Positions 20,894-32,719 are shown, numbered from the stretch's first letter. The stretch: 61,311 bases of DNA from an uncultured Candidatus Saccharibacteria bacterium (GCA_964637185.1 CAZWVB010000001.1:1-61311); one strand, 5' to 3'. Notes: generated by a model from the letters alone, not told the origin. Translations and numbers: made by a program.

Positions 20894-22834
20894 TCAGGTA
20901 CAGGTCGGCAGGTTCGGTGCCGGACCGGGCTTGGGGGTGTTGAGGAACAGATCGGAGACGTAGTAGCCGCTGTCGAGCTTGGCCCAGACGTTGCTATTGC
21001 CGTTGTCGGGGTCGTTGATCTGCTCGCCGGTGATCTGGCAGACGACGGTGACGGTGTCGCCGTCGATGTGGTAGCCGTGATCGGGCGAGTTGTGGTTCGG
21101 CTCGCCGCGTCGGTACACCTTGCAGGTACCACCGCAGCCGGGTGAGATGACGCGGTACTGCGCCGGGGCCTGCGAAACGCCAGGAGCGGCGATCGTGACG
21201 ACGGTTGTGCCTGACGACCCGGACGAGCCACTTGGTGGAAACACCAACTGCGGATCGGATGAGAACGACGGGTTGGTGATGCCAACCGGTGCCTTATCAG
21301 CGATGAAGCTGGTGGCCCGGCTGTTGCCGCCGCAGCTGACGTAGATCTTCTTGTCGATCCAGCGGCCGTAGCTGTAGATGTCGGACGCGTAGTCGGCGAT
21401 GACCTGCGCTCCGGTTTGGTCATCGAAGACGATGGTCTTTCCTCGGGCGGAGCCGACGGCATAGCCGTTGTTGGCCTGCTTGAGGCTGAGGTTGACCTCG
21501 CTCATCCTGCCTCGGTCGATACCCCAGAGCTGGTTGCCGGCCCGACCGTCGTAGGCCAGCAGGCCGGCCGAGTTGGAGGAACCGTCTTGGAAGATGACGA
21601 CGCCGTTGGTGTAGTCGATGACCAGATCACCGCTGATGCGCGGGTACCGCCAGGCGACCGAGCCGTCGCGGCGGACTCCGATGAGCTGGTTTCCGGCTAC
21701 ACCGACGAAGTTGTCGTGATCGAGTTGGTACATCGACCAGCTGCTGAAGTCCGAGGCGTCGACCGCCACGCCGGTCGATGCGCCGCTTGCAGCGTCGAGC
21801 ATGATGATGTTGCCGTCACGGCCCTCCACGAACACAACGTCGGCACCGGCACTGGCGGCGTCCGGCTTCTGGTACGAAGTGAGCGTGTAGCGCCAGGCCT
21901 CTTGGCCGTCGGACAGGTTGACTCCGATGACGTCGGTCTTGTTGTCGCTGCCAACGCGCTGTTCCAGTAGGCCGACCACGACCGGCCCGGTCACGCCGAA
22001 GGGTACGAAGCGTGGTTGGGTGTCCGATGAGCCGGGCGGCAGTTTGGCGGCTCCGAAGGTCGAGTCCGCCTGCCAGCGCTGCGATCCGCTGGTCGCGTCG
22101 TAGGCCGTCAGGTAGTAGGCGACCGTGTCGAGGTTGATGCCGGTGCCGGCCTCGCGGTTGACTGAGCTGATCACGATGACCGGCTTGCCGTCGGCATCGA
22201 CACCGGCGACGGACTTGGCGTCCTCGCCGTAGCGGTTGCTGCTGCTACCGAAGGCCGACTGGGACAGCGAAGCCGAACTGCCGCCGGTCTCACCGTTGTA
22301 GGACGTGGCCTGGTTGTTGCCGATCACGACGAGGTACTTGCCTGCCGTGTAGCAGGTGCCCGAAACGCTCTGGTCGAGCACGAGCGCACCGTTGCCGGTC
22401 GGCTTGGCTGGGGCGGTCGTATCCGATGAACCGCGAGCCGTTGTTGTTGTCGATGACGAGAAGCCTCCACCGCTGCTTCGGTACGCCGTGGTGGTTGTCG
22501 AGCTGTAGTAGCTATTCGAGCCGGACGACAGGCTGGTGGACGACTTCGGACCAAGCGCCGCGGCCGCGGCGATCCCCACGACGACCAGCAACACGCCGAT
22601 GCCGATGAAGCTGGCTCCCTTTTGGTTCTGCGAGAGCTGCTTGAAGCGATCAACGGCCGAGGGGCCGGCCGACTTCGTTTCCGGTGGTGGCGGTAGCGGC
22701 GATTCGCCACCCGGAGGAGGTGGCAATGGCAGCTGGGACTCGGGTGGCGGTGGTGACTGCGGTGGTTGCCCTCCACCGCTCAAACCGCCAGCAGCGCTGC
22801 CAGATTCGGGCTGGTTGTCGCTCGTCTCGTCCAT
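20894..22834 (-). CDS. Membrane-anchored PQQ-like beta-propeller protein with C-terminal SH3-like domain
   Basis: Pro-rich N-terminus, one TM, S/T linker, repeats AYDATSGSQRWQ / GVNLSDGQEAWRY / AYDGRAGNQLWG; VVCQITGEQI...WAKLDSGYYVSDLFL. Confidence 0.75.
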   Translation of the reverse strand: MDETSDNQPESGSAAGGLSGGGQPPQSPPPPESQLPLPPPPGGESPLPPPPETKSAGPSAVDRFKQLSQNQKGASFIGIGVLLVVVGIAAAAALGPKSSTSLSSGSNSYYSSTTTTAYRSSGGGFSSSTTTTARGSSDTTAPAKPTGNGALVLDQSVSGTCYTAGKYLVVIGNNQATSYNGETGGSSASLSQSAFGSSSNRYGEDAKSVAGVDADGKPVIVISSVNREAGTGINLDTVAYYLTAYDATSGSQRWQADSTFGAAKLPPGSSDTQPRFVPFGVTGPVVVGLLEQRVGSDNKTDVIGVNLSDGQEAWRYTLTSYQKPDAASAGADVVFVEGRDGNIIMLDAASGASTGVAVDASDFSSWSMYQLDHDNFVGVAGNQLIGVRRDGSVAWRYPRISGDLVIDYTNGVVIFQDGSSNSAGLLAYDGRAGNQLWGIDRGRMSEVNLSLKQANNGYAVGSARGKTIVFDDQTGAQVIADYASDIYSYGRWIDKKIYVSCGGNSRATSFIADKAPVGITNPSFSSDPQLVFPPSGSSGSSGTTVVTIAAPGVSQAPAQYRVISPGCGGTCKVYRRGEPNHNSPDHGYHIDGDTVTVVCQITGEQINDPDNGNSNVWAKLDSGYYVSDLFLNTPKPGPAPNLPTCT

Positions 22835-22844
22835 GGATCGCCTC

Positions 22845-31175: not shown

Positions 31176-31177
31176 AG

Positions 31178-32719
31178 CTAGTTGATGTCCTTGTCATCGA
31201 GTTGCTTGCGGAACTTGTCGATCTCTTCCTGCGAGAGGTTCTCGGTGCGCACGACCTCCAGCTCGCCGATGTAGTCACCGGTGGTCAGATCGTTGATCTC
31301 GACGTGCAGTAGCCCGTCGATGTCGTAGGAGAAGAGGTACTCCATGGGCGCACCGGCCGGATGCTGGTGCGGCAGCTTGATGGGCTTGGTATGGAAGATC
31401 GTCACGTAGGCCGGGTCGTCGTCATCGCCTTGGGTGAGCTGCACGTTGACCGTGGTCTGGTTGTCGACCACGGTCGAGAAGATGTTGCTGCCCTTGGCCG
31501 GCAGCTTGGTGTTACGTGGGATGATGACGAAGTTCTGGTCGCGATCGAGTTCGTTGAGCGCGATCACACCAAGACCGTGTGAGGTCACGTCGCTGACGCG
31601 GATCGGCTTGCCGTCGCTGCCGGCCAGCACGGGCAGCAGGTGCTCTTCGCCGGGTGCTGCGCTGCCGGCGGCCTCCAGATGGGCCTGGATCGCGGCTCCC
31701 AGCGCCACGGCCTCATCCGGCTCGATGTTGCGGTCGGGCTCCATGCCCGAGAGGCGTCGCATCATCTCTGGCACCATCGGCATACGGGTCGAGCCACCGA
31801 CGAGCAAAAGATGGCTGATGTCGCTCCAGGCGAGCCCCGACTCCTCGAGCGTGTTCTCGACCAGCGACTCGGTTCGGCCGAGCAAACCCGCGGTGGCGGC
31901 CTCGAACTCCTCCCGAGTGACGGTGGTCTTGAGGTTCTGACCATCAACGGTTGTGAAGAACTTCCCGTTGGCCATCTGCGTCAGGTTGATCTTCAGACCC
32001 TCGGCCTTCTCGCGCAGCTCGGCTGAGATCGCATCGTTGTCCGAGAGGTCCGGACCACCATCGTCCTTGATCTTGTTGATGATGAGTTGCATCATCTCGC
32101 CGTCCCAGTCGAAGCCGCCGAGGTTGCGATCGCCGTCGGTCGCGAGGACCTCGAACTCGCCGTCACCGACGCGCATGATGGTCACGTCGAAGGTGCCGCC
32201 GCCGAGGTCGTAGACCAGCACCGTGCCGTTGATCTGAGTATCCAACCCGTAGCTGAGAGCAGCAGCCGTCGGCTCATTTAGCACCCGGCGGACGTTGAGG
32301 CCGGCGATTGAGCCGGCATCCATCGTGGCCTTGCGCCGGGCATCGTCGAAGTAAGCTGGCACCGTGATGACCGCGTCGGTCACCGTCGCACCGAGCTTCA
32401 TCTCGGCGTCTTCCTTGAGACGCCGGAGGATCATGGCCGAGACCTGCTCGGCCGTGTACTCCGAACCGTCGGAGGCGTAGAACCGCCATGAAGGATCGCC
32501 CATGTTGCGCTTGACGAACTGGGCCACATCGTCGGGGGCTGTCGGAGCCGAACGCTTGGCGTTGACGCCGACGAGGATGTCGTCGCCCTGGATCATCACC
32601 ACCGACGGCATGATCACGTCGCCGTCGCGATTCTTGATCATCTCGGCCTTGCCGAGATCGTTGACGTAGGCCACCGCTGAATAGGTGGTGCCCAGGTCGA
32701 TGCCGACGATCTTGCCCAT
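31178..32719 (-). CDS. Hsp70/DnaK-family chaperone, lidless (513 aa)
   Basis: GIDLGTTYS, ITVPAYF, NEPTAAALSYG, DLGGGTFD, LVGGSTRMP, PDEAVALGAAIQA, IIPRNTKLP. Confidence 0.95.
   Translation of the reverse strand: MGKIVGIDLGTTYSAVAYVNDLGKAEMIKNRDGDVIMPSVVMIQGDDILVGVNAKRSAPTAPDDVAQFVKRNMGDPSWRFYASDGSEYTAEQVSAMILRRLKEDAEMKLGATVTDAVITVPAYFDDARRKATMDAGSIAGLNVRRVLNEPTAAALSYGLDTQINGTVLVYDLGGGTFDVTIMRVGDGEFEVLATDGDRNLGGFDWDGEMMQLIINKIKDDGGPDLSDNDAISAELREKAEGLKINLTQMANGKFFTTVDGQNLKTTVTREEFEAATAGLLGRTESLVENTLEESGLAWSDISHLLLVGGSTRMPMVPEMMRRLSGMEPDRNIEPDEAVALGAAIQAHLEAAGSAAPGEEHLLPVLAGSDGKPIRVSDVTSHGLGVIALNELDRDQNFVIIPRNTKLPAKGSNIFSTVVDNQTTVNVQLTQGDDDDPAYVTIFHTKPIKLPHQHPAGAPMEYLFSYDIDGLLHVEINDLTTGDYIGELEVVRTENLSQEEIDKFRKQLDDKDIN

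Follow-up and report, generated by a model that had tools for sequence, protein, structure and literature searches.

A window of 61,311 nucleotides from an uncultured Candidatus Saccharibacteria bacterium (GCA_964637185.1, CAZWVB010000001.1:1-61311) contains an uninterrupted row of eleven minus-strand genes (20894-32719) in which an Hsp70, a GrpE and J-like proteins are encoded together with an EccC-like ATPase, a membrane protein, small helical hairpin proteins and a toxin. The operon somewhat probably encodes a minimal Esx/type VII-like machine for the export of polymorphic toxins, in which the Hsp70 would act on the side of the cargo. This reading is based on the EccC-type fold of the ATPase, its translational coupling to the membrane partner, the adjacent hairpin proteins, the fusion of such hairpins to toxins and the co-inheritance of the chaperone genes.

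Organization of the operon

The gene list, gene order, strand and coordinates given in an initial annotation of the window agree with the open reading frames (ORFs) and their Pfam matches. The same holds for its description of the genes as overlapping or separated by 52 nt or less, the measured intergenic distances being -23 to +52 nt. In the order of the operon, and with transmembrane abbreviated as TM, the genes encode:

31178-32719, minus strand: Hsp70, 513 aa, with a nucleotide-binding domain and a beta substrate-binding domain (Pfam HSP70, E 1.3e-126)
29958-31175, minus strand: J-TPR1, with J-like and TPR regions and two C-terminal TM helices (DnaJ 31.7 bits, cut-off 27.8; TPR_2 and other TPR families)
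29416-29961, minus strand: GrpE nucleotide exchange factor, 181 aa (Pfam GrpE 60.9 bits, cut-off 25.8)
26496-29438, minus strand: FtsK-type ATPase, 980 aa (Pfam FtsK_SpoIIIE 85.5 bits, in a single stretch)
25810-26499, minus strand: coiled-coil protein with two C-terminal TM helices, its start overlapping the ATPase stop by 4 nt
25522-25782, minus strand: Esx-like helical hairpin of 86 aa, conserved more strongly than any other protein of the system
25222-25494, minus strand: 90-aa helical hairpin, paralogous to the toxin N-termini (46-48% identical to those of toxins 1 and 2)
24494-25213, minus strand: toxin 1, 239 aa, a hairpin (N-terminal ~90 residues, 46-48% identical to the 90-aa hairpin), a Gly-rich linker and a C-terminal alpha/beta domain
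24094-24477, minus strand: putative immunity protein 1, 127 aa, cytoplasmic, starting 16 nt past the toxin 1 stop behind a GGAG
22845-24041, minus strand: J-TPR2, J-like/TPR with two TM helices (Pfam DnaJ 34.5 bits, and TPR)
20894-22834, minus strand: beta-propeller protein, 646 aa, one TM helix and an extracellular PQQ-like propeller (Pfam PQQ_2, E 2e-10)

Overlaps of 4, 23 and 4 nt link J-TPR1, GrpE, the ATPase and the coiled-coil protein successively. The first is between the J-TPR1 stop and the GrpE start; the second, between the 3' end of GrpE and the start of the ATPase, is seen in independent assemblies too. A scan for promoters and terminators gave nothing exceeding shuffled expectation. 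A further 160 loci came from scanning metagenomes and a single genome for each species; loci, of which 173 were compared, are referred to below by L numbers. The nine genes common to the window and its close variant L011 are under strong purifying selection (dN/dS, the ratio of nonsynonymous to synonymous substitution rates, 0.00-0.11 at dS 0.39-0.96).

The EccC-like ATPase

An AlphaFold2 model of the ATPase, built with 17 homologs (pLDDT 83, pTM 0.73), consists of an 80-residue N-terminal helix followed by three FtsK-fold alpha/beta domains. Among PDB folds it matches best the part of Thermomonospora curvata EccC that comprises the three cytoplasmic ATPase domains (4nh0, E 5e-31 over 978 aligned columns); EssC comes next, and for the FtsK and TcpA motors the match is limited to one domain. 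Comparison with PDB sequences similarly places EccC, EccC5 and YukB first (EccC 4nh0, E 8e-21; DNA translocase FtsK, 2.6e-8). The top NCBIfam models are EccCa (E 1.7e-27; 96.5 bits, cut-off 509), EccCb (86.6 bits, cut-off 347) and EssC (78.8 bits, cut-off 778). By sequence and by predicted fold the protein appears to be EccC/EssC-like, as first annotated, with scores far below the family cut-offs.

A Walker A/B pair is seen in the middle domain only, with a GxxGxGKS motif and invariant residues G438, G441, G443, K444, D551 and E552. Hydropathy gave no convincing TM helix; the one marginal window (residues 181-199, score 1.64) falls within a helix of the first alpha/beta domain in the model. 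The family is large, with at least 587 matches in species genomes and 5559 representative clusters at E <= 1e-30. The relatives in species genomes are all from Actinomycetota, and more distant relatives are found in other phyla. A second size class of ~1300 aa (P0344-P0416; L008) has an extra N-terminal part of ~350 residues, and occurs outside the Actinomycetota in Lentisphaerota and Verrucomicrobiota (Chthoniobacteraceae). The gene for the distant Lentisphaerae ATPase, L008, adjoins a true Pfam WXG100 gene.

The membrane partner and the hairpin proteins

The coiled-coil protein encoded next to the ATPase has, near its C-terminus, a strongly hydrophobic window that was scored at residues 173-191 and a second helix, read from the sequence, at ~195-215. 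It is likely to be a membrane anchor or channel partner of the ATPase. A coiled-coil or TM protein is also encoded 3' of the ATPase in the inspected loci L006, L007, L009, L014, L017, L019, L095 and L098. The partner in L098 (12354-13841), a protein of 495 aa, ends in a PemK/MazF-like toxin domain (Pfam E 2.9e-7).

The 86-aa hairpin shares 100% amino acid identity with its L011 counterpart, for which the ATPases are 90% identical, and 74-77% with those of L006, for which the ATPases are 42% identical. Small helical proteins are seldom conserved to this degree, which points to many binding partners. An alignment of the hairpin family (~86 aa) shows a helix, a G[GS]S loop, a second helix and a terminal [YFW]xxx[LIV] motif. 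In the hairpin regions of the toxins this motif is FVGRI, and directly precedes the Gly-rich linker.

Toxins and putative immunity proteins

In the AlphaFold2 model of toxin 1 the hairpin is formed by helices 3-43 and 50-87, and a disordered stretch (89-107) joins it to the alpha/beta domain; 6 homologs were found. GC content falls across the C-terminal domain and the immunity gene. The L011 counterparts are diverged, with 48% identity for the toxin and 32% for the immunity protein. Immunity protein 1 has no Pfam match, TM helix or signal peptide. A second cassette lies upstream of the operon:

33959-34714, minus strand: toxin 2, 251 aa, a hairpin as in toxin 1 with an unrelated C-terminal domain (PF15644 Gln_amidase, E 1.3e-10)
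33688-33972, minus strand: putative immunity protein 2, ~94 aa, start uncertain, the ORF abutting the toxin 2 stop

The C-terminal domain of toxin 2 belongs to the papain-fold glutamine deamidase family (PF15644), and immunity protein 2 has no family match. The hairpin regions of the two toxins (36% of toxin 1) share 97% protein identity, and there is a 300-nt direct repeat, 89% identical. L011 lacks the toxin 2 cassette. Hydropathy analysis gave neither a TM helix nor a signal peptide for the toxins and neighbouring small proteins. Hairpins are fused to toxins elsewhere as well, to an ART domain in L006 and in further fusions in L019 and L017. A common N-terminal carrier, interchangeable C-termini (PF15644, ART and others), adjacent small genes, the dip in GC and cassette differences constitute the signature of polymorphic toxins.

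The chaperone set

The Hsp70 scores 433.6 bits against the NCBIfam DnaK model (cut-off 648), aligning with model positions 1-511 of 625, and is not a DnaK equivalog. The protein ends right after the beta substrate-binding domain and therefore has no helical lid. Its dN/dS relative to L011 is 0.03, and, read against the sequence of E. coli DnaK, it keeps the apparent equivalents of R167, N170 and T173. J-TPR2 is 50% identical to J-TPR1 and has a dN/dS of 0.04 relative to L011. Hydropathy places the TM helices at residues 338-356 and 365-383 of J-TPR1, and at 333-351 and 358-376 of J-TPR2. As both helices are at the C-terminal end, the J-like and TPR parts would be cytoplasmic.

This topology bears on the suggestion, made in the initial annotation, that the Hsp70 works like the translocation motors of BiP or mtHsp70. 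BiP and mtHsp70 do their pulling on the far side, whereas the Hsp70, GrpE, J-like and TPR parts encoded here are all cytoplasmic, which for export is the near side; the ratchet therefore cannot apply to export. The Hsp70 can hold, unfold, load or dock cargo, and cannot pull it out. Tom70 and Sec72 are membrane TPR receptors that dock cytosolic Hsp70-bound precursors at a translocase on the near side. The placement of the Hsp70 would, as a fitting analogy, resemble such docking more than a BiP-type ratchet.

Two genes divergent from the operon may also belong to the system, since both are conserved in L011:

35061-36272, plus strand: 403-aa protein without a family match, encoded divergently from the operon
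36347-37645, plus strand: third J-like protein, 432 aa, Pro-rich, no TM helix (Pfam DnaJ E 5.6e-6, 26.8 bits, just below the cut-off)

The beta-propeller protein has a Pro-rich cytoplasmic head followed by a TM helix (76-94), and its C-terminal domain resembles the N-terminal region of the cell-wall hydrolase GsmA (NCBIfam E 9e-6). It is conserved solely in L011-L013.

Recurrence of the Hsp70-ATPase linkage

In L006, on a contig labelled as a Sulfitobacter metagenome-assembled genome (MAG), the row Hsp70, J-like/TPR, GrpE, ATPase, 224-aa protein, 86-aa hairpin and hairpin-ART toxin is found. An Hsp70 gene lies on the same strand as the ATPase and within ~3.5 kb of it in L006, L094, L014, L015, L019 and L098-L104. 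Carriers include an Acidimicrobiales MAG (L014), Nocardia sp. NPDC127579 (L015), Modestobacter sp. VKM Ac-2984 (L019) and a freshwater actinobacterial group (L098, L101-L104). On a 41%-GC contig (L095) the Hsp70 is ~5.7 kb upstream of the ATPase with three J-like genes between them, and in L155 two Hsp70 genes (577 and 758 aa) are on the strand opposite to the ATPase. The linked Hsp70s are ~502-523 aa long and end just past the beta domain in all linked lineages except L155. A J-like/TPR gene alone adjoins the ATPase in L120 and L121, and L117 and L118 give weak matches only.

Hsp70 thus adjoins the ATPase family in at least six other lineages. As the gene order is repeated in L006 and the linkage recurs in these lineages, the arrangement is not a chance juxtaposition, and the chaperone and FtsK modules do co-occur elsewhere, contrary to what would, by the initial annotation, have refuted its proposal. 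In a neighbour-joining tree of 160 ATPases the Hsp70-linked loci fall in a few basal clades. A large clade of chromosomal actinobacterial ATPases (including Micromonospora, Frankia, Salinispora and Lentzea), often with housekeeping neighbours such as FHA and MerR-type genes, shows no Hsp70 linkage.

The core triad of ATPase, coiled-coil/TM partner and one or two hairpins recurs in the loci inspected gene by gene. The system therefore has three layers: a core of ATPase, membrane partner and hairpins; a cargo of toxin fusions; and the Hsp70 set, a clade-specific accessory that is kept in synteny and under selection.

In many Actinomycetota (L007, L009, L010 and most of L016-L093) the ATPase is accompanied by a partner of 346-449 aa and a hairpin of 87 aa, but by neither Hsp70 nor toxins. 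This chromosomal trio has a conserved neighbourhood consisting of a glycine-cleavage H protein, an FHA protein and two MerR-family genes. No description of the widespread trio was found.

Comparison with known systems

The window operon resembles a type VII secretion system (T7SS) in the tandem, apparently EccC/EssC-type FtsK-fold domains of its ATPase, in the ~90-aa hairpin proteins encoded beside the ATPase, and in toxins with an N-terminal helical targeting domain and adjacent putative immunity genes but no signal peptides. It differs in that the ATPase has neither TM helices nor an FHA domain, the TM helices being on the separate coiled-coil protein. There are three ATPase domains, of which one has an intact Walker site, where the T7SS has four. 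The hairpins lack W-x-G and fall below the WXG100 cut-offs, and the operon includes a dedicated Hsp70/GrpE/J-like set, of which there is no report for any of T7SSa-j. None of EccB/D/E, MycP, EsaA, EssA/B, YukD/ubiquitin-like or TsxB components was found in Pfam and NCBIfam scans of the proteins tested from the surrounding genomic island (described below), in agreement with the initial annotation, which could recognise neither EccB/D/E-MycP nor EsaA/EssA/EssB. The T7SSc-j systems are defined by a membrane-bound ATPase with four NTPase domains, and the paper describing them makes no mention of Hsp70, DnaK, DnaJ, GrpE or TPR (PMC11217815).

The toxins are built like the LXG/WXG polymorphic toxins exported by T7SSb, with a helical carrier, a linker, a variable toxin domain, a putative immunity gene downstream and apparent turnover of cassettes between strains; both PF15644 and ART belong to the LXG/WXG repertoire. 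Unlike in those toxins, the carrier is a plain hairpin of ~88 residues, with paralogues that occur as separate proteins. Pfam gives no match to LXG, and no targeting factors of the Lap/DUF3130 type were recognised.

A specialised Hsp70 with membrane partners has a precedent in E. coli HscC, which is encoded beside DjlB and DjlC, J proteins anchored in the membrane by a C-terminal helix. The window operon is similar in that a non-housekeeping Hsp70 is encoded beside membrane-anchored J co-chaperones. The Djl proteins carry the canonical HPD motif, unlike the J-like domains of the window, and to our knowledge HscC has neither a dedicated GrpE nor any connection with toxins or a secretion ATPase. 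The likeness to Tom70/Sec72 import would lie in a membrane TPR protein that brings an Hsp70-client complex to the translocase on the near side. It does not extend to homology beyond the TPR and Hsp70 folds; the TPR protein of the window is also J-like and the motor is of the FtsK type.

Full-text literature searches, in which journal coverage was incomplete, turned up no account of an EccC-like ATPase combined with an Hsp70/GrpE/J set. Nor do we know of a bacterial secretion system that has an Hsp70, an exchange factor and J-type partners of its own.

Evidence against export and alternative explanations

Several findings weigh against a type VII-like export machine. The W-x-G motif is present in 0 of 17 aligned hairpins, and the 90-aa hairpin matches WXG100 below threshold in both Pfam (E 0.0037, 17.9 bits for a cut-off of 27.3) and NCBIfam (E 2.9e-4, 21 bits for a cut-off of 44.85). 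Any structural resemblance to WXG100 is not significant for so simple a fold. The TM helices encoded number 2+2+2+1, with no known channel protein among them. Canonical T7SS substrates leave the cell folded, so that an unfoldase would be unexpected. The activity of toxin 1 is not indicated by any match: a fold search with its moderate model (pLDDT 67) gave nothing significant, and there is no Pfam family.

Membership of the WXG100 family was considered and rejected. A profile of the 17 hairpin sequences searched against the PDB gave generic coiled-coil noise, with EsxA and ESAT-6 at E 0.13-0.19, and Pfam scans of the individual members gave matches below threshold only.

The J-like domains are a further difficulty, the canonical HPD motif being present in 0 of the 11 aligned from the window and its relatives. 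In the window it is replaced by APD (J-TPR1), SGD (J-TPR2) and AAD (third J-like protein), and elsewhere by LAD, LPD, HPK, HPT, LSG or GPG. The J fold is nevertheless recognised above the Pfam cut-off in J-TPR1 and J-TPR2. Of the labels 'WXG-like' and 'J' used at first, the hairpin shape and the J fold are therefore retained, whereas the W-x-G motif, a WXG100 score above cut-off and the HPD are missing; the J-like proteins are no more than candidates for classical stimulation of the Hsp70 ATPase. The absence of the HPD points to a J fold that is used in a non-canonical, perhaps structural, way. This would suit a second explanation, in which the secretion machine is the same and the Hsp70 serves the machine, by assembling, disassembling or recycling the ATPase hexamer, the anchor or spent hairpin bundles. 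The J-like/TPR proteins are anchored in the membrane beside the presumed complex, and the chaperone set is kept in members without nearby toxins, such as L098. Such a service nevertheless seems quite unlikely, given that most members of the ATPase family assemble without a private Hsp70.

The distribution of the chaperones also counts against an essential part for them in export. Among the 95 loci with full context, Hsp70 lies within 10 kb of the ATPase in 8 and is absent from 87. L017, although devoid of Hsp70, encodes two hairpins, one of them of 86 aa, and a hairpin fused to a toxin. As most relatives lack Hsp70 and L017 keeps its toxin fusions, the chaperone set is an accessory rather than a defining part. 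The original proposal of a minimal toxin-delivery machine with a private Hsp70 is thus supported by the EccC-like ATPase and the co-occurrence of the modules, but has to be narrowed with respect to the place of the Hsp70.

The most serious competitor of the export reading is an intracellular system for conflict or abortive infection, which we regard as unlikely. Here the Hsp70/GrpE/J-like proteins would sense an invader or gate the response to it, the ATPase and toxins would act in the producer, and the small proteins would be antitoxins. Against export, and for such a system, is the occurrence of Hsp70 and GrpE with DnaJ- or TPR-bearing partners near the membrane in the GAP1-N2 conflict systems of actinobacteria and firmicutes, as presented by Kaur et al. 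2020 (PMC7159879). The window operon shares with these systems a private Hsp70 and GrpE with DnaJ/TPR partners (PMC7159879). The first annotation knew of no T7SS with a dedicated DnaK triad; this holds in that the literature searches found none and the T7SSc-j paper is silent, but the Hsp70-GrpE-DnaJ/TPR cassette itself is not new, being present in the GAP1-N2 systems (PMC7159879). A further point on this side is L015, where a GAP1-N2 gene and two DO-GTPase2 genes are directly beside the ATPase cluster. The operon is also carried as cargo of a mobile element alongside ArdA and a methylase, and the ATPase matches defence models at domain level.

Those matches are confined to the P-loop domain of the ATPase (SspH, mad8 and HerA models), the remaining proteins giving none of any weight, and PADLOC-DB 2.0, among the checks advised in the initial annotation, gave no system match. 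A tblastn search with the L015 proteins found no GAP1-N2 or DO-GTPase2 in any of the other 172 loci and nothing in the window (E > 0.1), and the window differs from the GAP1-N2 systems, as does every other locus examined, in the lack of GAP1, double-GTPases and the FNIII-repeat protein. In the passages of Kaur et al. that were consulted, FtsK appears solely as an inactive effector domain belonging to other systems, and the module of ATPase, hairpins and toxins is not described (PMC7159879). Moreover, a common carrier domain with interchangeable toxin domains is a hallmark of exported polymorphic toxins, and the ATPase is EccC-like over all three domains, both of which speak for export.

A family-wide link to GAP1-N2 was rejected, as only L015 has GAP1-N2. 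In that locus (13665-20996, Nocardia sp. NPDC127579) a complete GAP1-N2/double-GTPase system with two copies of DO-GTPase2 lies beside a Hsp70-GrpE-ATPase-hairpin cluster, the sole case in 173 loci. L015 may be an evolutionary bridge over which the chaperone cassette passed between systems of these two kinds.

The mobile element and its host

The window is a mosaic of GC content, with ~48-50% at 1-10 kb and 38-58 kb and ~64-68% at 10-38 kb. The high-GC block, or island (9801-38500), is ~28 kb long and 65% GC in a Saccharibacteria genome of 48% GC, and the eleven-gene operon (20894-32719) sits within it. The block begins directly past a tRNA-Ala(GGC) gene (9852-9928, plus strand), the sole match in an Rfam scan. 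It encodes a large serine recombinase, an ImmA/IrrE peptidase, ArdA, an N6/N4 DNA methylase, a Replic_Relax protein and a coupling protein. From the recombinase, the Replic_Relax protein, the coupling protein and the other cargo genes it appears to be an integrative mobilisable or conjugative element. Two of its features are:

16124-18400, in the high-GC block: coupling protein, TraD/TcpA-like
9801-11654, minus strand: serine recombinase ORF, running antisense through the entire tRNA-Ala gene (9852-9928, plus strand)

The source of the element is probably actinobacterial, that is, from the phylum hosting these epibionts, since the ATPase relatives in species genomes are all Actinomycetota and the GC content agrees.

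The setting raises a third explanation, namely that the ATPase is a DNA translocase for transfer of the element, like TraB of actinomycete elements, with the chaperones and toxins as unrelated neighbours. FtsK-family ATPases do move DNA in actinomycete conjugation, and the cluster is carried by an integrative element that also has genes for a recombinase, a coupling protein and a relaxase-like protein. The element, however, has its own TraD/TcpA-like coupling protein (16124-18400), most ATPase relatives are chromosomal in a conserved housekeeping neighbourhood, sequence and fold are nearer to EccC than to the FtsK motor, and hairpin genes are always 3' of the ATPase in the inspected loci. Transfer of DNA is therefore very improbable as the function of this ATPase.

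The final ~40 codons of the serine recombinase are specified by host DNA at the attachment site, so that its C-terminus would differ between the integrated and the excised element. A long direct repeat of the tRNA end was looked for at the far island border and none was found, which is expected for a serine recombinase.

The DNA flanking the island is from Saccharibacteria: the closest named homologs of the Obg protein from the host flank are 57-61% identical and carry Candidatus Saccharibacteria or Saccharimonadales labels, with one Dormibacteraeota exception. The right flank of the island consists of housekeeping genes. Chimeric assembly of the 65%-GC block was considered and rejected, as flank and island proteins are found on one 258,614-bp record; a misjoin is also ruled out by independent assemblies from other runs that join the same flank to the island. 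The exact operon is found in independent assemblies, and one identical contig is recorded in 13 samples. Between the window and L011 the host flank is 94% identical (window 38731-40389 and L011:1-1659) and the island 80-85.5% identical (compared with L011:2895-22935). Either related elements were acquired or replaced independently at one site, or the island is evolving faster than its host. The leucyl-tRNA synthetase of the host (48683-51769) has a NUDIX domain inserted at residues 441-569, just past the editing domain (Pfam E 1.2e-14).

Proposed mechanism and implications

In the export machine that we favour, the ATPase would assemble into a membrane-associated hexamer, held to the coiled-coil partner by the long N-terminal helix. 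The hairpins would pair into four-helix bundles, formed either by the 86-aa and 90-aa proteins or by the 86-aa protein and the toxin N-terminus. These bundles would be recognised by their conserved terminal [YFW]xxx[LIV] motif and then exported. The J-like/TPR anchors would keep the Hsp70 at the machine on its cytoplasmic side, where it could hold the toxin domain unfolded and export-competent, or strip the bound immunity protein before export. The exported toxins would act in the cytoplasm of neighbouring bacteria.

If the link between chaperones and ATPase is functional, the system would provide a compact model for the separation of toxin-immunity pairs before export, and for the handover of cargo from an ATP-driven chaperone to an ATP-driven translocase. 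The large family of soluble EccC-like ATPases, with thousands of representative clusters, is missing from the classification of T7SS variants that was consulted (PMC11217815). As these ATPases come with a trans-acting membrane partner and with hairpins that lack WXG, the term 'type VII-like' is widened by them.

The presence of a high-GC element in a low-GC Saccharibacteria genome suggests a flow of genes, and of weaponry with them, from actinobacterial hosts to their epibionts. It is possible, although doubtful, that the operon represents a distinct class of export machine to which a J-like/TPR-anchored Hsp70 cycle is integral, captured on an actinobacterial integrative element and used by a Saccharibacteria epibiont against its actinobacterial host or competitors. 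Defence of the host against Saccharibacteria by an Esx system was reported in 2026 (PMC13622651). If the proposal is true, toxin delivery by the epibiont would be the mirror image of that defence.

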